Shown here: in pieces, positions 1-16,629 of the stretch
Position numbering within the stretch: position 1 is the stretch's first letter
How the letters are laid out: every line of letters begins with the position of its first letter
Assembly: GCA_045615385.1 (NCBI GenBank)
Contig: JAZLES010000008.1
Location: 2,601-66,600 of the forward strand
DNA length: 64,000 nucleotides
Reading direction: 5' to 3'
DNA from: Candidatus Nanosyncoccus sp.
GTDB lineage: Bacteria; Patescibacteriota; Saccharimonadia; Saccharimonadales; Saccharimonadaceae
Program-made: the position numbers and the translations under genes
Notes under the pieces: model-generated
The model's input: only the letters and a program-made list of their open reading frames with translations
The model's database searches: none
Told to the model about the DNA's origin: nothing

Positions 1-5
1 GTTTT

Positions 6-392
6 ATGCTAGAACATAACGGCAGATTTAATTCTCGCGATTACGACAAGTTTGAGCGCATGGAGCTAATGGAATCGTCCGTTCGTGACGCGATTCACGA
101 GCTGAAGACCTATTCCCTAGAAACACTAGCACAGCGCTTTGATGCACGCCTTTTTGGGCGCGGTAAGCGCGTTTTTGCGAGGTTAGACACCGAAGACGAC
201 AAATGGTACTACTTTTCCCTCGCATACATTCCACGCGCGCTAAATAACCGCGATGTAAATGACGCAATAGTTCAGATGTTCTTCATTGGCAAATGGCGCG
301 TCCACAAGCTTTCGCTCTGGGCCGAGCCAGAAGATATTAACCATTACGGCAACGATTTTAACAAAACATTCCATCATTTAGTCAATAGATAG
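6..392 (+). CDS. Hypothetical protein of the island (may be 5'-truncated by the window edge)
   Basis: 128-aa ORF with island-like codon style; no recognisable motif. Confidence 0.6.
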   Translation: MLEHNGRFNSRDYDKFERMELMESSVRDAIHELKTYSLETLAQRFDARLFGRGKRVFARLDTEDDKWYYFSLAYIPRALNNRDVNDAIVQMFFIGKWRVHKLSLWAEPEDINHYGNDFNKTFHHLVNR

Positions 393-500
393 TATCCACT
401 TGGACACAATCGGGTTTTGAAAGTTATTGTGCAGAAAATAGGGGTGGGATTTTTTCTTGACACGAAACGGCGAAATATGTCATACAACACCTTGCGCATC

Positions 501-529
501 TTCAAAAAGTATACGCTTCATGGTATAAT
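501..529 (+). promoter_or_regulatory. Sigma70-type promoter for the MTase-helicase-nuclease operon
   Basis: TTCAAA (501-506), 17 bp, TATAAT (524-529) with extended TG; predicted start near 535-536. Confidence 0.65.
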
Positions 530-535
530 TAAAGA

Positions 536-772
536 GTCCTAATCAAATTAAAAATTGCAACAGATACGAGAGCAGAGAGTATTTTTCTGCCAAGACGCAC
601 GTAAACTAGGGCGTCTTGGATCAATAGGAACGTACGTCTCTGTTGCAAAAACGATTAGGACCGGCCAAGGCGTCCTAATTTAAGATTAGTTTTGAATTAA
701 TTACAAGGACGTGGTCGCGTCCTAATTTTGTTATTTGAGTTCTTGTTCTGTTGCAAAGAAAGCGCAACAGAG
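536..772 (+). ncRNA. Candidate structured cis-regulatory leader RNA (unknown class)
   Basis: Nested inverted repeats 536-544/653-661, 555-568/635-648, 572-576/586-590, 590-598/611-619, and a hairpin 747-754/764-771 abutting the ATG at 773. Confidence 0.55.
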
Positions 773-3547
773 ATGCCAAGAATCAGCTACCAGCAGATTC
801 AGCAGAACATTGCTGAAATTGCGAACCGCGATGCGTACGAGTCGACGGTTATCTACGATCTTCTTTTGGCCTATGGAAAACCAAAGGCTACAATTACGAA
901 ACTGCAAGGCGGAATTAATAATTTCGCAAAAGACGATGGCGTCCTGCTTAAAGATGCCGTCTTTTTTAAGGTTTTTCCTGCTGGTACAGTGCTAGAATCA
1001 AAAGTTGAACAATTAAAACACAACGAACTAACTGAACGTTATCGACCACGTTACCTAATCGCAACAGATCTTCAGAATATCGCCGCCTATGATCGTCGCC
1101 AGGAAGCATCTCTTTCCACAAAAATTCGCGACCTAGATAAAGATTTCACATTCTTCTACGGCCTTAGCGGCAACGAAGTAAACACCGACCAAAAAGAAGA
1201 AGCCTATGCGGATCGTAAAGCCGCAGAGCGCATGAAAGAGCTCTACGACGAAATCGTAAAATGCAATACGCAACGCATTATTGATAAAGATTTAAACTTC
1301 CGTCACGACCTAAACATCTTCTTTAGTCGTCTCCTCTTCTGCTACTTCGCAGAAGACACTGATTTGTTTGAGCCAAAGCAATTCACGAATTCGATTAAAA
1401 ATTACACAAAACTGGACGGATCAGACACGCCTTACTTCTTTGAGCAACTATTTAAATCACTTGATTCGAAACCTTACGAAAAGCAGGATATGCCGGATCC
1501 GTTCAATAAATTCCCATACGTCAACGGCACGATTTTCGACACAAAACAACATTCGATTCTTATTCCGCAATTCAATGCACAAGCCCATCATTTGTTAATT
1601 CAATTAGCGGAGTCGGACTGGTCAGATGTTAATCCCGATATCTTCGGCACCATTTTCCAGGGCATCGTTGACACACAGAAACGCGACGAGAACGGCATGG
1701 ACTACACTAGCGTCACTAATATCGAAAAAGTCATCAACCCACTCTTTATGGACGATTTATGGGCCGAATACGACAAAGCAAAAGACAATGTCAACAAACT
1801 AAACAAGCTTTGGATAAGAATTAGCAAAATTAAAATCTTCGACCCGGCTTGTGGCTCTGGTAATTTCTTAATTATTGCCTATAAACGTCTGCGCGAACTC
1901 GAACAAGAAATTATTCGTACAATCGACGAAATCTCCCCTGCTGGAATTGGAATTAGATTAGATAGCCAAATCAAACTCGATCATTTCTTCGGCATCGAGC
2001 TAGAAGATTTCCCTAGAGAGTTGGCGGTTCTTTCTATGTTTATCGCCGCGCATCAAATGAATATCAAATTCGAGGAAGAGTTTGGTAAAAAACTTACAAT
2101 TATTCCTATTATCGATATGCCGACAATTATTTGCGGCAATTCAGCGAGATTAGATTGGAACTCCGTATGCCCTAACGTTCCGCACGAGATATCGTCGGTC
2201 CATATGGTAAGTATGTTCGATGAACTTAATGACGAATCAGAATCGCAAAAATCCGAAGCGGTTTATGACGAAATTTATGTAATAGGAAATCCGCCATATA
2301 AAGGCACTAGAAATCAAACAGATGATCAAAAACGTGATAAAGCGGCCGTCATGGCAAACATTGATGGTTCAAAAAATCTTGATTATGTAGCTATCTGGTT
2401 CGTAAAAGCAGCTAAGTATATCGGCAATAGTATAGCTAAGGCATGTTTTGTATCTACAAATTCCATCACTCAGGGCGACCAGGTCCATATATTATGGCCA
2501 CATATCCTCACAAACAATATAGAAATAGGCTTTGCATATACATCATTTAAGTGGACAAATAATGCAAAGGACCAAGCCGGTGTCACTGTGGTTATTATTT
2601 CACTGCAAAGACATACGACAAAGAAGAAAAAACTATTCAGCAATACTACTATTGACGAATGTGACGCAATCAACGGCTTCCTAATCCCTATGCCGCCAAT
2701 ATATATAGAGCGACATAATACTTCTATTTCTGGTTTACCTGAAATGAGTTATGGTAATCACACGGGAGGCTCAAAAGACTTGTTCATAACTCCAGAACAA
2801 AAGAGCGTGATTTTACGCGAGTATCCTAATGCTTCGAAATTTATTAGGCCTACTGCAGGATCCGCAGAATATATCCGCGGAATTGAGCGCTACTGCTTAT
2901 GGATTGAGGACAAGGATCTAGAAGAAGCAAAAGCAATCAAACCTATTAATGATTTAATTGAAAAAATAAGATTGGACAGAATTTCCTCCAAAGAGCCTGG
3001 TAAGAAAAAACTCGCTTCTCGACCGCATCAATTTAGAGATTTAAATACGGCCATCAATAATGAGATCATAGTTCCTATTGTCTCTTCTGAAAATCGAGAA
3101 TATTTTGTATGTGGTGTCTTAGACGCTAGTGTAATTATTCCAAATTCCGCTCAAGCAATATATGATCCAGAAATTTATGTGTTTGCCTTAATAGAGTCGA
3201 AAATGCATACGATTTGGATTCGTACGGTTTGCGGAAAACTAGAGACTCGATATCGTTATTCTTCGTCGCTCGGCTACAATACATTTCCTGTGCCACCGCT
3301 TAATCCAACTCAGAAACAAAAGCTGAATGATTCGGCCATGAATATCCTTATGGCGCGCGAAAACCATACCGAAATGACGCTTGCCCAAATGTACGATCCA
3401 GACAAAATGCCAGAAGATCTTCGTAATGCACACGACGCAAATGACCTGCTCGTAGATAAGCTATACCAAGACAAGGCTTTTCTGAACGACGAAGAACGTC
3501 TAGCCAAGCTTTTCACAATGTATGAAGAATTAACAAAAGATAAATAA
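773..3547 (+). CDS. MmeI/YeeA-like N6-adenine DNA methyltransferase (type IIL-like, with target-recognition domain)
   Basis: Motif I FDPACGSGNF, motif IV GNPPY, MmeI-like C-terminus (RYRYSSSLGYNTFP). ATG 773 preferred over TTG 728. Confidence 0.9.
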   Translation: MPRISYQQIQQNIAEIANRDAYESTVIYDLLLAYGKPKATITKLQGGINNFAKDDGVLLKDAVFFKVFPAGTVLESKVEQLKHNELTERYRPRYLIATDLQNIAAYDRRQEASLSTKIRDLDKDFTFFYGLSGNEVNTDQKEEAYADRKAAERMKELYDEIVKCNTQRIIDKDLNFRHDLNIFFSRLLFCYFAEDTDLFEPKQFTNSIKNYTKLDGSDTPYFFEQLFKSLDSKPYEKQDMPDPFNKFPYVNGTIFDTKQHSILIPQFNAQAHHLLIQLAESDWSDVNPDIFGTIFQGIVDTQKRDENGMDYTSVTNIEKVINPLFMDDLWAEYDKAKDNVNKLNKLWIRISKIKIFDPACGSGNFLIIAYKRLRELEQEIIRTIDEISPAGIGIRLDSQIKLDHFFGIELEDFPRELAVLSMFIAAHQMNIKFEEEFGKKLTIIPIIDMPTIICGNSARLDWNSVCPNVPHEISSVHMVSMFDELNDESESQKSEAVYDEIYVIGNPPYKGTRNQTDDQKRDKAAVMANIDGSKNLDYVAIWFVKAAKYIGNSIAKACFVSTNSITQGDQVHILWPHILTNNIEIGFAYTSFKWTNNAKDQAGVTVVIISLQRHTTKKKKLFSNTTIDECDAINGFLIPMPPIYIERHNTSISGLPEMSYGNHTGGSKDLFITPEQKSVILREYPNASKFIRPTAGSAEYIRGIERYCLWIEDKDLEEAKAIKPINDLIEKIRLDRISSKEPGKKKLASRPHQFRDLNTAINNEIIVPIVSSENREYFVCGVLDASVIIPNSAQAIYDPEIYVFALIESKMHTIWIRTVCGKLETRYRYSSSLGYNTFPVPPLNPTQKQKLNDSAMNILMARENHTEMTLAQMYDPDKMPEDLRNAHDANDLLVDKLYQDKAFLNDEERLAKLFTMYEELTKDK

Positions 3548-3559
3548 TAAAGGAGCGCC

Positions 3560-5773
3560 ATGGACCATTTAGATCGATATAACACCATATTAGAAAAAAT
3601 CGCCGAGCAGCCGATTTTTGATGTAAATGACGTGCGCGAATGGTTAAAAAGCGGCGACAGAGTTGCTACAGACTGCATTAAATGGCTTCTGGATCACGAC
3701 CAAATTGAACTTTGCGAAGATGAGTCTGGCGACGCAAAATATATTTCAAAAGAAGCAGCTATAAATAACGACTCTAACGCAGAACGCGCAAGCGAACAAA
3801 CTATTAATGTCGTAAATGTCGGCTACGGACAAACTGGTCAGAGCACGAACACGAATGAGCTCGGCATGCGCGAAATGCAACAGCGAGCATATGAAAAACG
3901 CGCAAGCCAAAGGCTACTTATAAAAGCTCCACCAGCATCTGGTAAATCACGCGCCCTAATGTTCCTTGCCCTCGACAAGCTCCATAACCAAGGTATTAAA
4001 AAAGTCATTATTGCCGTTCCGGAACGGTCAATCGGCGCATCTTTCCGCGACGAAGACTTAACCAAGTACGGCTATTATTGGGATTGGCGTATTGCACAAT
4101 ATAACAACCTTTGTAACGATGATGGCCTAGACGACAAGAGTAAAGTTGGTGCGTTCATGAAATTCATGGATAGCGACGACGACATTCTATTATGCACGCA
4201 TGCTACCCTTCGCTTCGCGTGTGAATATGTTCCAGTTGAAAAATTTCAAGATTGCCTGCTTGCAATTGACGAATTCCATCATGCGTCCACATCCGAAAAT
4301 AGCGTACTAGGAAGTGTTTTGCATAATATTATGCAAGAAACAAACGCCCATATTATAGCCATGACTGGCACTTACTTCCGTGGCGATTCTGTAGCCATTC
4401 TTACACCAGAAGACGAAGCAACTTTCGATAAAGTAACCTATACGTATTACGAACAATTAAATGGTTATACATACCTCAGAACGCTCGGAATTGGCTATCA
4501 TTTCTACACCGGTCACTACTTGGATGACGGCGCACTTTCTGAAGTATTAGACACGCATAAAAAGACCATTATCCACATACCAAATGTCCAATCTAATGCC
4601 GCTGGAAACATTAATAAGCATCAACAGGTTGATGAGATATATAGCGTAATTGGCGAATGGAAAAGAAAGGATAAAGATACTTGCATCGATTATATTGAAA
4701 CTGAAGATGGTCGTATGCTAAAAGTCGCAAATCTTGTAGAAGACGACCCACGTCACCGCGAGCCACTTCGTAGATACATTTCTGACGTAGCACGGAACGA
4801 TATCGACGGACTCGACATAATCGTCGCCCTAGGCATGGCGAAAGAGGGCTTTGACTGGCCATTCTGCGAGCACGCATTAACGATTGGCTATCGTGGATCA
4901 TTTACGGAAGTCGTGCAGATTATAGGTCGTTGTACGCGCGATAGCTACAATAAGACTCACGCACAGTTCACGAATTTGATCGTCAAGCCTGCGGGAACGC
5001 AAAGTGATGTAACAGTTGCCGTAAATAATATGCTAAAAGCTATTACAGTTTCATTACTCATGGAACAAGTATTGGCGCCAGAGTTTAAATTTACGCCAAC
5101 GCCAAGAGAGCCACGTGAGGCAAAACCGGGCGAAATGTTTATCAAAGGGCTGAAGATTCCAAAATCGGAGCGCGGTAAGCAAATCTTACAAACCGATCTT
5201 GAAGACCTGGTTGCCAAGACGTTACAAGACGAACGCATTGAACGTGCTGGCGCAAACAATATAGCAGGCCCATATCTACGCCAAGTTCAAACAGATATTA
5301 TTCGCGAAAATTATCCTGGACTTGAAGATGACGATATAGAAGCTATCCGCCAAAATGTAGCTGTTAAGATGGCGATGACAACGGCTAAGATCGTATCCGA
5401 AAAAGACGACAAAACCGGCAAGGACAATCAGTTTGTAGTCTTAGCAAATCGATTCGTAAAGATAGACGAGCTCGATATGAACCTTATCGACTCAGTGAAC
5501 CCATTCCACCATGCGTTTGAGGTCCTATCGAAGAAGATGGATGGTCAAACATTTAAGCTGATTCAGGATGTTATTAAGAGCGACAACGTCAGCTTTACCG
5601 ACGACGACGCGCTTGCATTAGTTCCACAAATTCAAGAATTCGTAAATGAACATGGCGGAAAATATCCTTCACCGCATTCAAACGATTCAAACGAACGCCT
5701 ATTGGCAAGCGCACAAGCGTATCTAACGCGCAGAATCTATGAAAATAGTAAGTTAAGTCCGGAGAATTCATAA
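3560..5773 (+). CDS. YeeB-like superfamily 2 DEAD/DEAH helicase
   Basis: APPASGKS (Walker A), DEFHH, MTGT, QIIGRCTR; RBS AAGGAG upstream. Confidence 0.9.
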   Translation: MDHLDRYNTILEKIAEQPIFDVNDVREWLKSGDRVATDCIKWLLDHDQIELCEDESGDAKYISKEAAINNDSNAERASEQTINVVNVGYGQTGQSTNTNELGMREMQQRAYEKRASQRLLIKAPPASGKSRALMFLALDKLHNQGIKKVIIAVPERSIGASFRDEDLTKYGYYWDWRIAQYNNLCNDDGLDDKSKVGAFMKFMDSDDDILLCTHATLRFACEYVPVEKFQDCLLAIDEFHHASTSENSVLGSVLHNIMQETNAHIIAMTGTYFRGDSVAILTPEDEATFDKVTYTYYEQLNGYTYLRTLGIGYHFYTGHYLDDGALSEVLDTHKKTIIHIPNVQSNAAGNINKHQQVDEIYSVIGEWKRKDKDTCIDYIETEDGRMLKVANLVEDDPRHREPLRRYISDVARNDIDGLDIIVALGMAKEGFDWPFCEHALTIGYRGSFTEVVQIIGRCTRDSYNKTHAQFTNLIVKPAGTQSDVTVAVNNMLKAITVSLLMEQVLAPEFKFTPTPREPREAKPGEMFIKGLKIPKSERGKQILQTDLEDLVAKTLQDERIERAGANNIAGPYLRQVQTDIIRENYPGLEDDDIEAIRQNVAVKMAMTTAKIVSEKDDKTGKDNQFVVLANRFVKIDELDMNLIDSVNPFHHAFEVLSKKMDGQTFKLIQDVIKSDNVSFTDDDALALVPQIQEFVNEHGGKYPSPHSNDSNERLLASAQAYLTRRIYENSKLSPENS

Positions 5774-6939
5774 TGGACTATTCCGAGAAAATCGCAGAGC
5801 TAGCAAAGAGTCCTTATGCGGATCTATTCAAGACAAAGCCAAAACAACAAAATATGACTGCCGATGATCGCTTGCTGGAATCGTTCGAAGAAATAAGAAC
5901 TTTCTACCATAATCATGGCCATGTTCCAATGATGAATGCCGTCGACATGAAAGAAAAACTACTCGCGGCACGCCTAAAAGGTCTGCGACAAGATAAAAAC
6001 AAAAAGGCTATGCTTGCCGAAAATGATCCAGACGGTATTCTAGAAGATGATATGGAGGCTCCAAAAGATTTTAAAGAATTAGAAAAGAATTTCGGCGGCC
6101 TATTTAAAGGTGCTAAAGATCTTTTTAATGTTTCGTCGCTTCCAAACAATGGTCGAGTAAAGCGAACAGTCGAAAACGGCTACGAAGCAACGCGCCGTGA
6201 GCAATGTCCTAATTTTGATTCCGATTACAAAGATGCTTTCGATAATATACGCGTTAATCTTGAAAACGGCCAATTGAAAACCGTGAAATTTGTAGATGTC
6301 GAACAAATGCATCCTGGCGGATATTACGTTTATAAGGGCGAACTATGTTACGTAGTAAGCTTTGACGAAGTCGAACAGAAAGTCGGCTATTCACAACAAC
6401 GCATTACTGTAGTTTTCGAAAACAAAACTATGTCGCATATGTATCGTCGCTCTCTCGCTCAACGTCTATATGAAGATAGCGGATTCGCGGTGGTAGATAA
6501 AGACGCGCCAGAACAGCAAGAGCTAGAAACTAAAGTAACTGGCCGCATATATATCCTTCGCTCAAAAAGTACAGATGATAAAATCGCAACAATCAAAGAC
6601 CTATACAAAATCGGTATGGTCGAGAATGAGTCGGTAGCCTCGCGCATTGCGAATGCGAAAAACGAACCGACCTACTTAATGGCTGATGTTGAAGTTGTAA
6701 ATACTTATCGCGTCGAGGGTTTTAATACACAGAAATTAGAAGATTTAATTCACAAATTCTTCGGCGGTTCACAGCTGGAGATTGAAATTATCGGAAACGA
6801 TGGAAAACCGTATCATCCACGCGAATGGTATTGCGTGCCATACGAAGTCATAGATCAAACAATCCAAATGATTAGTAGCGGCGAAATCGTCAATTACTAT
6901 TACGACCAGAATGACCAGAAACTAAAAAAGAGACAATAG
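5773..6939 (+). CDS. YeeC-like GIY-YIG (T5orf172/MUG113-type) nuclease
   Basis: GRIYILRS...LYKIG...RI...LEDLIHKFF...REWY; 1-nt TAATG overlap with the helicase. Confidence 0.85.
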   Translation: MDYSEKIAELAKSPYADLFKTKPKQQNMTADDRLLESFEEIRTFYHNHGHVPMMNAVDMKEKLLAARLKGLRQDKNKKAMLAENDPDGILEDDMEAPKDFKELEKNFGGLFKGAKDLFNVSSLPNNGRVKRTVENGYEATRREQCPNFDSDYKDAFDNIRVNLENGQLKTVKFVDVEQMHPGGYYVYKGELCYVVSFDEVEQKVGYSQQRITVVFENKTMSHMYRRSLAQRLYEDSGFAVVDKDAPEQQELETKVTGRIYILRSKSTDDKIATIKDLYKIGMVENESVASRIANAKNEPTYLMADVEVVNTYRVEGFNTQKLEDLIHKFFGGSQLEIEIIGNDGKPYHPREWYCVPYEVIDQTIQMISSGEIVNYYYDQNDQKLKKRQ

Positions 6940-7648: not shown

Positions 7649-7804
7649 ATGCAAAAGGAACAGCCGGTCGTAGAAGACCGAAAAGAAGCCGTCAAAAACC
7701 TAGTGCAATTACTTTGCGCATTAGACGACATAGACGATTCGCCAGAGCGCGAGTCCAACAAAGCGAAAGGAGTGTGCGACGACGGAGTAGTTGTCGTGTT
7801 CTAA
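7649..7804 (+). CDS. Small 51-aa ORF immediately upstream of the recombinase
   Basis: MQKEQPVVEDRKEAVKNLVQLLCALDDIDDSPERESNKAKGVCDDGVVVVF; stop lies 4 nt before the recombinase ATG; too short for the ORF track. Confidence 0.35.
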   Translation: MQKEQPVVEDRKEAVKNLVQLLCALDDIDDSPERESNKAKGVCDDGVVVVF

Positions 7805-7808
7805 AGCT

Positions 7809-9467
7809 ATGAATAGAGCACTAATCAATGCGAGTAGCGGCATAGTTCAGAAGCCATTACGTTACGTACTTTACGTGCGCAAATCTTCTGAAGACGCCGA
7901 GGCTCAAGCCAAATCATTACCAGACCAAATCGCAGATTGTAAAGAATATGCGAATAATCATGGTTTGCTTCTAGTTGGCGAACCGATCCAGGAATCTAAG
8001 TCCGCGAAGAAATCCGGCAACCGTCCGCTTTTCTCGCAAATGCTAAAAGATATCGAGAAAGGCAAATACGATGCCATTCTCGCCTGGCACCCAGACCGCT
8101 TATCGCGTAACTCACTCGAAGCCGGAATGGTTGTCGATATGGTCGATAACGGCGTCATTAAAGACCTGCGTTTCCCGACTTTTGAATTCCATAACGATTC
8201 AAGTGGCAAGCTAACACTAAACATGCTCTTTGCGCTTTCAAAGCAATATTCAGAACATCTATCCGAAAGCGTGCAACGCGGCGTCGATTCTAACCTCGAA
8301 CAAGGTAAATCTGGCGGTATGCCGAAGTGGGGTTATATCCGCGACGACGTATCAGGCTATTACAAACCAGACAAGAACTTCAAGATGATCCAGAAAGGCT
8401 GGCAGATGATTCTAAATGGCGCGTCGCAAATGGAAGTCTACCGTTACTGGAAGATGAATAACGTGGAGCGTTCTACGAAACTCTCACGCCGAAACAAACA
8501 TGTTAGAAGCTACGGCGTCTGCGAAAGCACCGCGAACCGCATCTTCCACGATCCGTTCTACTACGGAATCCTTGAACAAGGTCGCAACTATGTAGATCTA
8601 CGCGTAGTAACACCAAACTTCAAACCAATGGTAACCGAAGAAGAATTCGACCAGGTTCAGAAAATGTTTAGAAAAGACCGTGGCTCGATCCAATCTTCCT
8701 GCTACGAAAACCAGAAAGCCACACATGGCAAATACTTCTTGCCGTTCCGCCACCTTATCAAATGCTCAGTGTGTGGCCATTATATGATTCCGGCTAGAAA
8801 CCGCGGACACTCTGGCACGTATTACCTCAATTATCGATGCCACAACAAAGCCTGTACGCGCCCAAAGAACAATATACGCATGCATGTTATCATGGATCAA
8901 CTCTACGAGGAATTCGGCCGTATCAGCCAGAAATACGATTTTACCGAATATGTAAACGCCATGAGCGAATATGCCGACAAGAAGATGCAAGAAGCGACCG
9001 TCGAAAAACACGAGCTCCTCGGCCAGAAAACACAGAAACAAAGAAAGATCGACGACCTTGCGGAAAAGTACGCCGAACTAGACAAAGAGTCGCCAAAAGC
9101 CGTCAAAGACAAACTCAAAAAGGACATGGCGGATTTGCAAAATGATGTTGTAAATATCGACGAAAGAATCAAGCAAATTGAAGCCAAAATCAAGAATCCT
9201 GAAAAATTACGCATGACCATCGAAAAGTTTTCGAACTCGCTAAATTCGCTAATTAACAGATTAGAAAAAGGAGATCTCGTTGAAAAGGACATTTTGGTCA
9301 GAAATATGGTTTCGAACCTTGAAATTGATGCACAAAAAAGGGTGATTTACAGATATAAATCACCATTTAATTTCATCTTCGAACCTGAGTTTTCCACAGG
9401 TTCCCCTGTTGGTGAGCCGGGAGGGACTCGAACCCTCGACACCAAGCTTAAGAGGCTCGTGCTCTAA
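7809..9467 (+). CDS. Large serine recombinase (integrase)
   Basis: YVRKSSED catalytic Ser motif, DRLSRN, recombinase domain, CxxC...C...C zinc ribbon, coiled coil; ATG 7809. Confidence 0.92.
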   Translation: MNRALINASSGIVQKPLRYVLYVRKSSEDAEAQAKSLPDQIADCKEYANNHGLLLVGEPIQESKSAKKSGNRPLFSQMLKDIEKGKYDAILAWHPDRLSRNSLEAGMVVDMVDNGVIKDLRFPTFEFHNDSSGKLTLNMLFALSKQYSEHLSESVQRGVDSNLEQGKSGGMPKWGYIRDDVSGYYKPDKNFKMIQKGWQMILNGASQMEVYRYWKMNNVERSTKLSRRNKHVRSYGVCESTANRIFHDPFYYGILEQGRNYVDLRVVTPNFKPMVTEEEFDQVQKMFRKDRGSIQSSCYENQKATHGKYFLPFRHLIKCSVCGHYMIPARNRGHSGTYYLNYRCHNKACTRPKNNIRMHVIMDQLYEEFGRISQKYDFTEYVNAMSEYADKKMQEATVEKHELLGQKTQKQRKIDDLAEKYAELDKESPKAVKDKLKKDMADLQNDVVNIDERIKQIEAKIKNPEKLRMTIEKFSNSLNSLINRLEKGDLVEKDILVRNMVSNLEIDAQKRVIYRYKSPFNFIFEPEFSTGSPVGEPGGTRTLDTKLKRLVL

Positions 9468-9486
9468 CCAGCTGAGCTACCGGCCC
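9410..9486 (-). tRNA. tRNA-Lys(CTT)
   Basis: GGGCCGG acceptor stem, anticodon arm CGAGC-CTCTTAA-GCTTG, GGTTCGAGTCC T-arm, encoded CCA; 77 nt. Confidence 0.95.
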
Positions 9487-14808: not shown

Positions 14809-16629
14809 TCATTGCTTATTTCCCGGATTAGTCGTAATTAACCCTTCCTCCGTCTCTGATGCAATAACCTGAATATGCACGTGATTAGAACCAGCAAAGA
14901 ACAAGCCCTGCCCAACCGGGAAATTTGCCAACCTTCTCTTCTCTTCCTCTGTTAATTTAAAGACATCCGACAAAACATCCACCGCCGAAGCATTCTGCTT
15001 TAATAGAAGCTGCATTGACGAGTTATTGACAATCGCCCGCCCCATCTTGTTCCCCATGAAATCTTCTACGTCTTGCGTAATCGTCGTCAAACCTAGATAA
15101 TATTTTCTTGCGCGTTTTGCTAATGAGAACAAGAAATTCGCTGAATCTTCAAATTGCATTAACTGCCATGCCTCATCTACGATTAGTAATCGCTTTTTCT
15201 GTTCCGCCCTTACAATATTCCAAATGTGTGAAAGCACAATATACATTGCCACCGGTCTTAATTCTTCCTCAAGATCCCGAATATTAAATACTACCATCTG
15301 ATTATTAATATCAATATTCGATTGTTGCGAGAAAATCCCCGCGAAAGTCCCTGTAGTATATTTACGTAATCTCTGCGCTAATTGTGGGCCCGTCCCTTCC
15401 ATATGTAGAAGCGTATCGTATAAATTCATAATTGTCGGTGGCACCGACTGATGCGTCAAAGGATCTGATGTAATACCTGCTCTCGCATATGTGTCTATCA
15501 ACGCCTGGTCAAGATCAGCTTCTTCACTTGCAGTTAAAGCCGGTACTACCTGACCAGTAGCGGTAGCCTGACTACCACCAAGCATCGTTCTAAACAACCC
15601 ATGCAGAACTACTAAATTAGCCCTCAAAGCATCATTCGCATCTTCCGAATCAATTACTTTCGGCAAATCAAACGGATTAATTCTCACATCCGAATTTAAT
15701 GACAATCTTATATACGAACCGCCCACCGCATCACAAAGTTTTTGATACTCATTTTCTGGGTCGATAATCAAAATCTCCGTTCCTACCATCATTGACCTTA
15801 ATGCTTCTAGCTTCACCGTAAACGACTTACCAGCACCCGACTTCGCAAACACCACCATATTCGCATTCTCTAAGCTAAACCGGTCAAAAATTACTAACCC
15901 ATTATTATGCATATTAATACCATACAGAATACCTTTATCCTGAGTTAAATCTGCCGATGTAAATGGGAATGATGTTGAAATCGCACCCGTATTCATATTC
16001 CGGCGAATTTGTAGCTGATCCGAACATTGTGGCATTGTCGAATTCATACCTTGTTCCTGTTGCGAATTCGCCACCTTCGAGAAAATCATTTGTTGCCCAA
16101 AAATCGTTTCGATTTTCTGTTGTACAAATTTCATCTCATCCAAAGAATCTGCCCAAATCGTTACATAAAGACCAAACCGGAAGAATCTTTCCGCGCCTAC
16201 CTGCAACTGATCCCGTAGTTCCTCTGCATCGTTAATTGCTGCCTCAAGTTCTGGATCACGTACCCGTCCCTTTTCCGCATTAAGATTCATTGACGCTTCA
16301 AGCTGAGTTACTTTCGTCCTTAAGTTCTTCATCACTACTGCTGACTCAACCGGATAAATATACATCGACACATCAATTACTTCGTCAATATTAATAATCG
16401 GTGACAGCCAACCCGTATAAAGACTTCTCGGATAACCATAGACATATAAAGTTCGTCCGTATTTGTTTCCTAACCTAAAATAATCTGAATGAATTTCAAT
16501 TGCCGACGGCGAAATCAAATCCCTTAAAGTATTTGTGCCTTGTTCAAACGCTCTCTGAATTTCCGCTGCTTCCGTCGCCTCTGCCTGCACCGCAATCTCT
16601 GCCGCCGTCAATTTTTTCTTCTTACCCAT
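14809..16629 (-). CDS. virB4: VirB4/TraC-like T4SS ATPase
   Basis: AKSGAGKS Walker A, IIDPENEY, IVDEAWQL, LTTITQDVEDF. Confidence 0.9.
   Translation of the reverse strand: MGKKKKLTAAEIAVQAEATEAAEIQRAFEQGTNTLRDLISPSAIEIHSDYFRLGNKYGRTLYVYGYPRSLYTGWLSPIINIDEVIDVSMYIYPVESAVVMKNLRTKVTQLEASMNLNAEKGRVRDPELEAAINDAEELRDQLQVGAERFFRFGLYVTIWADSLDEMKFVQQKIETIFGQQMIFSKVANSQQEQGMNSTMPQCSDQLQIRRNMNTGAISTSFPFTSADLTQDKGILYGINMHNNGLVIFDRFSLENANMVVFAKSGAGKSFTVKLEALRSMMVGTEILIIDPENEYQKLCDAVGGSYIRLSLNSDVRINPFDLPKVIDSEDANDALRANLVVLHGLFRTMLGGSQATATGQVVPALTASEEADLDQALIDTYARAGITSDPLTHQSVPPTIMNLYDTLLHMEGTGPQLAQRLRKYTTGTFAGIFSQQSNIDINNQMVVFNIRDLEEELRPVAMYIVLSHIWNIVRAEQKKRLLIVDEAWQLMQFEDSANFLFSLAKRARKYYLGLTTITQDVEDFMGNKMGRAIVNNSSMQLLLKQNASAVDVLSDVFKLTEEEKRRLANFPVGQGLFFAGSNHVHIQVIASETEEGLITTNPGNKQ

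Follow-up and report, generated by a model that had tools for sequence, protein, structure and literature searches.

How is a restriction-modification (R-M) operon controlled when a structured RNA lies between its promoter and its first start codon? The question is raised by one end of a 64,000-nucleotide (nt) stretch of Candidatus Nanosyncoccus sp. (contig JAZLES010000008.1, positions 2,601 to 66,600; the whole stretch is called the window, and coordinates are those of the window), where positions 536-772 separate a predicted promoter from ATG 773 of an operon for an MmeI-family type IIG enzyme, a helicase and a T5orf172 protein. An initial annotation, made from the letters alone, had proposed mutually exclusive RNA-level pairings in front of this defence operon, and such pairings are present. 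The segment belongs to a conserved family, so far uncatalogued, of leader RNAs that act in cis and sit on mobile islands of Saccharibacteria. It is probably the 5' leader of the MmeI-type operon mRNA, in which an attenuator acting in cis would be joined to a translational mask, the folded 5' domain giving the ON state.

Competing helices and terminators in the leader

The elements of the leader used throughout this analysis are the following.

501-529, + strand: promoter found by a consensus scan, with TTCAAA at 501-506, a 17-nt spacer and an extended -10 element TGgTATAAT at 521-529
536-544, + strand: 5' arm of the outer helix P1, GUCCUAAUC; its first base is the first base predicted to be transcribed, and its partner is 653-661
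545-554, + strand: A/U-rich linker between P1 and P2, AAAUUAAAAA; an AAAUUAA-like tract is kept family-wide, as judged by eye
555-568, + strand: segment A, the 5' strand of P2, UUGCAACAGAUACG; pairs with 635-648 and has an alternative 10-base-pair (bp) partner at 747-756
572-590, + strand: P3 hairpin GCAGAGA / UUUCUGC of the minimum free energy (MFE) fold; an extra CAGA/UCUG helix
590-619, + strand: P4 hairpin, 590-598/611-619; its loop and 3' arm make up segment I
607-619, + strand: segment I, UAGGGCGUCUUGG; aligns with the family motif (A)CUAGGGCRYC
635-648, + strand: segment B, the 3' strand of P2, CGUCUCUGUUGCAA; doubles as a long-range mask of the start codon
653-661, + strand: 3' arm of P1, GAUUAGGAC; doubles as the 5' arm of terminator T1
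665-679, + strand: segment X, CCAAGGCGUCCUAAU; its partners are I (607-619), 654-661 (giving T1) or 706-712
706-736, + strand: terminator T2 found by a terminator scan, AGGACGU-GGUC-GCGUCCU at 706-723 and then AAUUUUGUUAUUU
746-772, + strand: start hairpin of B' (746-754) and A' (764-772), with the Shine-Dalgarno-like AAAGAAAGC in its loop; ends one base before the AUG

The promoter matches 10 of 12 consensus positions in addition to the TG, and its predicted start at about G536 is flush with the outer stem, as had been proposed. P1 (536-544/653-661) has 9 bp at 100% complementarity, and the arms of P2 (555-568/635-648), of 14 nt each, are 93% complementary. P4 has 9 bp, the start hairpin 8 bp (747-754/764-771) and the alternative pairing of 555-564 with 747-756 has 10 bp. 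The repeat GTCCTAAT is present three times (at 536, 672 and 719), and ATTAGGAC at 654-661 has three candidate partners. All stems and repeats named in the initial annotation exist where it had placed them, the small hairpin being better delimited as 572-578/584-590 in the MFE fold. Absent from its list are two further pairings, 607-619/665-677 (13 bp) and 635-646/764-775 (12 bp with one G.U), the latter spanning the AUG. The folding check that it had suggested gives -86.8 kcal/mol for the + strand of 536-790, compared to -55.7 +/- 4.7 kcal/mol in 200 shuffles (z -6.63), and a weaker fold for the - strand (z -4.12).

Terminator T2, which the initial annotation had overlooked, reads AGGACGT-GGTC-GCGTCCT as DNA (706-723), followed by AATTTTGTTA (AATTTTGTTATTT). 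The T1 hairpin (654-661/672-679) uses the 3' arm of P1 as its own 5' arm, and the two helices are mutually exclusive. The layout of a promoter, a G+C-rich hairpin with a U-run and then ATG 773 recurs in the same order in about 45 homologues, and a hairpin with a U-run stands at the place equivalent to T2 in all homologues of type A, the subtype to which the window belongs. The genes begin 20-40 nt past the terminator, leaving no space for a promoter of their own. Attenuation by a leader peptide was rejected, since the sole open reading frame (ORF) in the leader (555-683, with a TTG start and without a Shine-Dalgarno sequence) is not kept in the homologues, whose leaders have no conserved ORF. 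There is no Rfam T-box match, and inspection of the leader revealed no T-box sequence. As for an antisense promoter, no promoter-like site was found on the - strand of 300-1000 in a search limited to a consensus scan.

The order of promoter, structured RNA, terminator and gene, with no second promoter and with a P1 that includes the first nucleotide, would also suit a device that does not switch. In such a constitutive setting of expression, the 5' stem would stabilise the mRNA, a leaky terminator would pass a fixed fraction of transcripts and the start hairpin would damp translation. This is unlikely, as a fixed attenuator needs neither an antiterminator strand covarying with the terminator loop nor start regions copied from switch strands with covarying long-range partners, both of which are described below. 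The tandem RNA repeats of a toxIN-like device are absent as well, with none detected in 400-900 by Tandem Repeats Finder. The strong promoter and the terminator also bound a stable, highly structured RNA, and short-type members finish in a canonical terminator, as might a stand-alone, trans-acting small RNA of about 145-200 nt that ends at T1 or T2 and leaves downstream expression as a read-through by-product. We regard this as very improbable, however: genes follow at once and their start codons carry copies of leader strands, which argues for cis control, and no targets complementary to the conserved strands were found elsewhere in the genome other than the second family member on contig C15 described below.

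The leader family and its covariation

BLAST in relatives recovers leaders that are 70-72% identical within the same genus. A pattern combining the promoter with the 5' arm, whose conserved block is TGnTATAAT-TAAAGA-GTC, is found at 50 sites in 47 of 369 Candidatus Nanosyncoccus genomes (about 13%), compared to one control hit. Of 29 distinct loci, 22 carry the exact reverse complement of the first eight transcribed bases at a distance of 107-142 nt downstream. A covariance model (R1), built on an alignment of 14 leaders (A4), gives full-length matches with E values between 1e-15 and 1e-25 in a family-wide sample of 401 genomes; these come from 13 genomes in 5 of 95 genera. One member (L200) belongs to a different family of the same order. 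Members with named public records come from metagenome-assembled genomes of 'Candidatus Saccharibacteria' or 'Candidatus Nanosyncoccus', mostly from ruminant guts. Outside this lineage, all 27 pattern matches in IMG/VR lack closure of P1 and are attributed to chance, with no family member among them, and pattern matches in genome contigs from outside the Saccharibacteria are likewise chance for the most part. A blastn search of phage and plasmid collections with 400-800 gave no match.

In the Rfam search that the initial annotation had suggested, the leader matches no described RNA family in Rfam 15 (window positions 1-3000 scanned, none in the leader even at E <= 10), nor do 10 related loci (E <= 1), and we found no published description of such a leader. 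It is also no multi-copy repeat. BLAST finds a single copy in its own 755-kb genome (scored complete), and its motifs are not repeated elsewhere there. A miniature inverted-repeat transposable element (MITE), an insertion sequence or a dispersed repeat was rejected on the basis of this single copy and of a second, divergent family member in the same genome, which is again a promoter-leader-gene unit.

This second member lies on the + strand of contig C15, at about 15,610-15,790. Its promoter is TGCTATAAT-TAAAGA, and its P1 (GUCUCAAUCC.../...GGAUUAAGAC) contains one A.C mismatch. Its segment I (UAGGGCACCG) is perfectly complementary to GGUGCCCUA, and the terminator stem GACACC/GGUGCC is mismatched; this combination could make the C15 member a 'locked-on' variant. 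Its 5' arm recurs as CUCAAUC directly after the AUG of an ORF without known identity.

Across the family, the RNA begins with GUC(C/U)(A/U)A and P1 encloses a core of 85-160 nt, in which the inner stems vary in number, length and sequence between subtypes. Conservation is confined to short motifs, namely the 5' GUC, the A/U linker (AAAUUAA) and an A-rich tract with the UAGGGC-type segment I. In addition, a 'CAGAG' element occupies the place equivalent to P3 in every methyltransferase-type leader. The relatives keep the pairings through compensatory changes, as the proposal of an RNA switch had anticipated. Most clearly for P1, 17 distinct, covarying arm pairs occur in 40 leaders and are 99.3% paired, compared to 78.6% after shuffling, a value reached by 0 of 2000 shuffles. 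In the rest of the family, the final GAC of P1 is also the initial GAC of the terminator, which is typically GACACC-loop-GGUGUC followed by a U-run. In four short-type leaders that precede methyltransferases (L013, L029, L036 and L037), a second hairpin with a U-run lies past the first terminator, its loop or stem copying the P1 3' arm or the I/T3 pair (GGCACC-GAAA-GGUGUC, for example); these look like serial tandem attenuators.

The strand that competes with the terminator is segment I, (A)CUAGGGCRYC..., which complements the terminator loop, the 3' arm and a few further bases (I:T3). This complementarity extends over 8-13 bp in 17 short-type leaders, each with p <= 0.05 relative to shuffled cores. 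Pooled, these helices hold 160 Watson-Crick and 21 G.U pairs and no A.C pair, in 17 distinct variants. As the non-Watson-Crick pairs are G.U and never A.C, the helix acts as + strand RNA. On an alignment of type-B leaders (A2), I:T3 comprises 12 pairs, three of them with changes on both sides, and is 95% paired, while T5:T3 comprises nine pairs, also three with changes on both sides, and is 98.9% paired. Both draw on identical T3 columns, and controls in which the partners are slid by 1-3 columns are only 26-51% paired. As in attenuator leaders built on an intrinsic terminator, an antiterminator pairing exclusive with the terminator is thus kept by covariation.

Segment X of the window aligns with T3 of the other subtypes (type B), and the RNAalifold consensus helix of the joint alignment is I:X. 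X is therefore the homologue of T3, which makes T1 the homologue of the family terminator. In the window, T1 has only a poor U-run, and T2 has been added downstream as a second and better terminator. The I:X helix has 13 bp in the window and 9-17 bp across five covarying type-A variants.

The start-codon mask and the proposed switch

The region around the start codon repeats the strands of the switch. A single motif is common to segments A, B, B' and A' in at least 20 methyltransferase-type leaders, and its variants CAACAGA, CAGCAGA (five leaders) and CAACGGA (L239) change in concert across all related segments. The loop of the start hairpin in the relatives is AGGAAA(G), a Shine-Dalgarno sequence. 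The long-range helix B:A' has 11-17 bp, exceeding both P2 and the local hairpin in length. It occurs in 14 distinct covarying variants and covers the start codon partly or wholly in 11 of the 14. Its extension next to the AUG, which lies outside P2, also covaries (GAUG/CGUC, GAUGC/GUAUC, GAUAUGC/GUAUGUC, GGCAUAUGU/AUGUAUGUC, GCGAUA/UAUCGC). In short-type leaders other strands hold the start codon. L006 and the C15 member have it in a duplicate of the P1 5' arm, L013 and L074 in one of the terminator 3' arm, their GUG start falling within GGUGUC. Judged from these sequences, start codons across the family are embedded in a second copy of a switch strand.

The initial annotation had proposed translational gating. 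Control would not be solely translational, as the family is built on an intrinsic terminator and antiterminator. The route by which the start was thought to open does not hold. Pairing of 555-564 with 747-756 would free segment B, of which 635-646 pairs better with the AUG region, so the swap alone would not open the start.

In the mechanism that we propose, the RNA would start at the 5' arm of P1 from a strong extended -10 promoter, and P1 would enclose the variable multi-stem domain. Closure of P1 and P2 would occupy the P1 3' arm and so block T1. Segment X, left free by closure of P1, would base-pair with T2 at its 5' arm and loop, allowing the polymerase to read through, and in most subtypes I would additionally capture the terminator 3' arm as a pseudoknot. 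Closed P2 would also lock B, leaving the AUG uncovered and the Shine-Dalgarno sequence displayed in the loop of the local hairpin (ON). If the domain opens, T1 and T2 would form and B would mask the AUG, giving an OFF state at the levels of both transcription and translation. From the modelled pairings, we infer that formation of P1 favours read-through and that its opening favours termination.

At the T2 decision point, the alternatives differ little in estimated energy: -64.8 kcal/mol for P1 with the antiterminator (X paired to the T2 5' arm and CGGCC to the T2 loop), -62.4 kcal/mol for P1 with T2 and -62.5 kcal/mol for T1 with T2. By these values, the window leader appears poised between alternative states. 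A simple type-A chain of P4, I, X, T2 5' arm and T2 3' arm was rejected, as X:T2-5' has only 5-7 bp in type-A leaders; it is retained only via the energy estimates for the window.

The architecture, with the P1 3' strand common to the terminator, fits a transcriptional ON-riboswitch, in which a P1-closed junction with the I:T3 pseudoknot would bind a small molecule such as S-adenosylmethionine (SAM) or S-adenosylhomocysteine (SAH), the cofactor and the product of each downstream methyltransferase; binding would stabilise P1 and switch the operon ON, as for the pbuE adenine switch. The few short conserved motifs and the prevalence downstream of SAM-dependent DNA methyltransferases from five unrelated families are in line with this. 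A true riboswitch nevertheless seems improbable. The inner stems, initially viewed as a sensor domain, are not conserved across the family, and cores that range from 85 to 160 nt are unlike known aptamers, which argues against a classical small-molecule aptamer. No conserved ligand-binding core with invariant unpaired nucleotides was found, riboswitch models, those for SAM and SAH included, give no match even at E <= 10, and some members precede membrane or unassigned ORFs. Because the inner stems are not conserved, we consider a small-molecule ligand less likely than an effector of macromolecular nature (a protein or RNA from island or host) or purely kinetic co-transcriptional control of the proposed attenuator.

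Several points weigh against the attenuator and mask as we propose them. Transcription start, termination sites and read-through are all predictions, T1 lacks a good U-run and no effector was found, the last of which would also suit a constitutive device. The I:T3 and I:X helices are pseudoknots relative to P1; pseudoknots were not scored by the folding tools used, and nearest-neighbour energies cannot rank these helices. In type A, I:X would favour T2, whereas I:T3 of the short type opposes the terminator, and given this opposite role of I the ON/OFF assignment in the window rests on differences of about 2.4 kcal/mol. The local start hairpin might itself inhibit translation, in which case 'folded = ON' would hold only in a relative sense. 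Finally, the membrane or unassigned ORFs behind some members do not code for methyltransferases.

Islands, cargo and known systems

The genes around the leader are the following.

3-392: ORF of 154 amino acids directly upstream of the leader (complete at contig C8:2528-2992)
773-3547, + strand: MmeI-family type IIG R-M enzyme of 924 amino acids, the first gene after the leader
3560-5773: helicase, the second gene of the operon
5773-6939: T5orf172-domain protein, the third gene of the operon
7791-9467: large serine recombinase, running into the tRNA-Lys gene
9410-9486: tRNA-Lys, on the opposite strand to the recombinase, with rny next

The product of the first gene matches Pfam MmeI_N/hel/Mtase/TRD/C (E 1e-18 to 4e-97) and PADLOC REase_MTase_IIG (1.9e-269). 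The junction of the serine recombinase with tRNA-Lys is the end and attachment site of an integrated island. On the other side, the contig upstream of the window carries MerR-like, flavodoxin-like and aldo-keto reductase genes. The 154-residue ORF adjoins six leaders of different subtypes, with identities of 63-95%. It has no Pfam, PHROG or NCBIfam match, its AlphaFold model is too poor for use (predicted local distance difference test value 48.5), and it may either belong to the backbone of the island or be a candidate regulator.

The genes behind the leaders are mostly DNA methyltransferases, which fall into five unrelated families: MmeI-type, EcoRI-family adenine (often with a GmrSD_N/HNH nuclease), Eco57I-type, Dam-like and C5 cytosine methyltransferases. 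The initial idea of a leader specific to a toxic methyltransferase-helicase-nuclease trio does not survive this comparison, as the same leader precedes plain methyltransferases of the five families as well as unassigned ORFs. Among the cargo, an EcoRI-family methyltransferase followed by a GmrSD_N (DUF262) and HNH nuclease recurs as a two-gene cassette behind L014, L020, L021, L038, L073 and others. Near-identical leaders precede different methyltransferase families, and the repeats were rejected on this ground as recognition sites of the enzyme itself, in the manner of autoregulation by methylation.

When leaders L003 and L004 are compared (also L190 and L196), the promoter and leader from -45 to +237 are 94% identical and both flanks are unrelated, the block ending at ATGCCTA. 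From this, the leader is a module that moves or is exchanged by recombination. A broken copy is seen in L016 (G171:C14), which is intact through segment A (…TTACAGCAGAA); the sequence beyond it is unrelated, and the recombination breakpoint falls exactly at the end of the CAGCAGA motif.

The leaders are thus recombination junctions between unrelated flanks, which raises the possibility that the repeats act as DNA, either as operator half-sites of a repressor or as recombination or inversion sites for cassette exchange. There are three copies of GTCCTAAT and four of CAACAGA, in both direct and inverted orientation, L016 is broken directly past segment A, and a serine recombinase lies downstream. 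We nonetheless find this reading barely tenable, since the helices covary as RNA stems with variable loop lengths, every non-Watson-Crick pair in them is a G.U when read on the + strand, and the U-run terminator and the Shine-Dalgarno sequence in the loop are features of RNA. No inverted arrangement is seen among the approximately 45 leaders. An expression site with silent cassettes, of the Mycoplasma vsa/vpma type, was rejected too, as the genome contains no other CAACAGAGATG junction and no silent cassettes bearing one.

R-M genes on mobile DNA need tight timing and dosage, for which controller proteins, autoregulation by the methyltransferase and antisense RNAs are known solutions. A terminator/antiterminator switch combined with a start-codon mask in one portable cis RNA would be a regulatory principle new to R-M and defence islands, and the portable promoter-leader module described here precedes at least five unrelated methyltransferase families. 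To our knowledge, gene regulation is almost unknown in Saccharibacteria, which are ultra-small epibionts, and the leader family is one of few handles on it. The family also supplies natural compensatory variants for the design of experiments.

Among known systems, the leader resembles the pbuE/ydhL adenine ON-riboswitch and the trp-type attenuators (1:2, 2:3, 3:4) in that it extends from the promoter, shares its P1 3' strand with an intrinsic terminator, forms a chain of mutually exclusive helices and is directly followed by a gene without its own promoter. In contrast to these, it has no conserved aptamer core, Rfam match or leader peptide, and it adds a pseudoknot-forming inner strand and a start codon within a duplicated switch strand. 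With the antisense-RNA-controlled attenuation of plasmid rep mRNAs (pT181, pIP501/pAMbeta1), it has in common a location on mobile elements and an upstream 'preemptor' strand that competes with the terminator 5' arm for the 3' arm. Unlike the pT181 type, it shows no promoter-like site for a countertranscript in the consensus scan, and methyltransferase and restriction genes, not replication genes, lie downstream.

Type III toxin-antitoxin loci (toxIN) likewise consist of a promoter, a structured non-coding RNA, a terminator that limits read-through and a potentially harmful defence gene, and the terminator between toxI and toxN passes a small fixed fraction of transcripts. Compared to toxIN, the window leader lacks tandem repeats and a following endoribonuclease toxin, and has a start-codon mask and an antiterminator that covaries. 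In R-M operons, controller (C) proteins and antisense RNAs also gate R-M genes on mobile DNA; here, the conservation lies in a cis RNA structure, and no gene for a small helix-turn-helix controller was recognised beside the operon, though C-boxes were not searched for specifically. The 154-residue ORF directly upstream has no family match, and a MerR-like ORF lies two genes upstream. The opening by a phage protein that the initial annotation had considered would be an analogy to the lactococcal abiD1 leader, a structured 5' leader that limits the expression of a defence gene and is activated by a phage RNA-binding protein; homology to it, in sequence or in structure, was neither sought nor found.

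A further parallel comes from gut and rumen Bacteroidales. There, orthologues of the EcoRI-family methyltransferase with 60-74% amino acid identity lie behind leaders of about 250 nt (L201, L203, L204, L209, L211 and L225). This suggests that EcoRI-type cargo has been exchanged across phyla, between Saccharibacteria and rumen Bacteroidales, and that the leaders are lineage-specific. The Bacteroidales leaders differ from ours in sequence and promoter type, model R1 does not detect them and they have no Rfam match; homology to the Saccharibacteria leaders is not detected with this model, and their likeness may reflect either homology or convergence. In organisation they are alike. A long-range P1 has a 3' arm ending 0-2 nt before the terminator (GAAAGG-loop-CCTTTC), an inner hairpin strand complements the terminator loop and 3' arm over 8-10 bp (p <= 0.05), and a GATTGATAG...CTATCAATC hairpin of 10-11 bp ends 4-7 nt before the ATG.

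It is conceivable, though doubtful, that the leader is part of a widespread, unrecognised class of RNA-only control devices for R-M and methyltransferase operons, which would sense a general cellular signal and replace controller proteins. In this reading, the shared layout would have appeared independently in Saccharibacteria and Bacteroidales. Candidate signals would be the availability of SAM, such that nuclease synthesis stops when methylation lags, or entry of the island into a new cell. The Bacteroidales parallel suggests that the combination of an attenuator with a start-codon mask may be a general principle in gut and rumen microbiomes.

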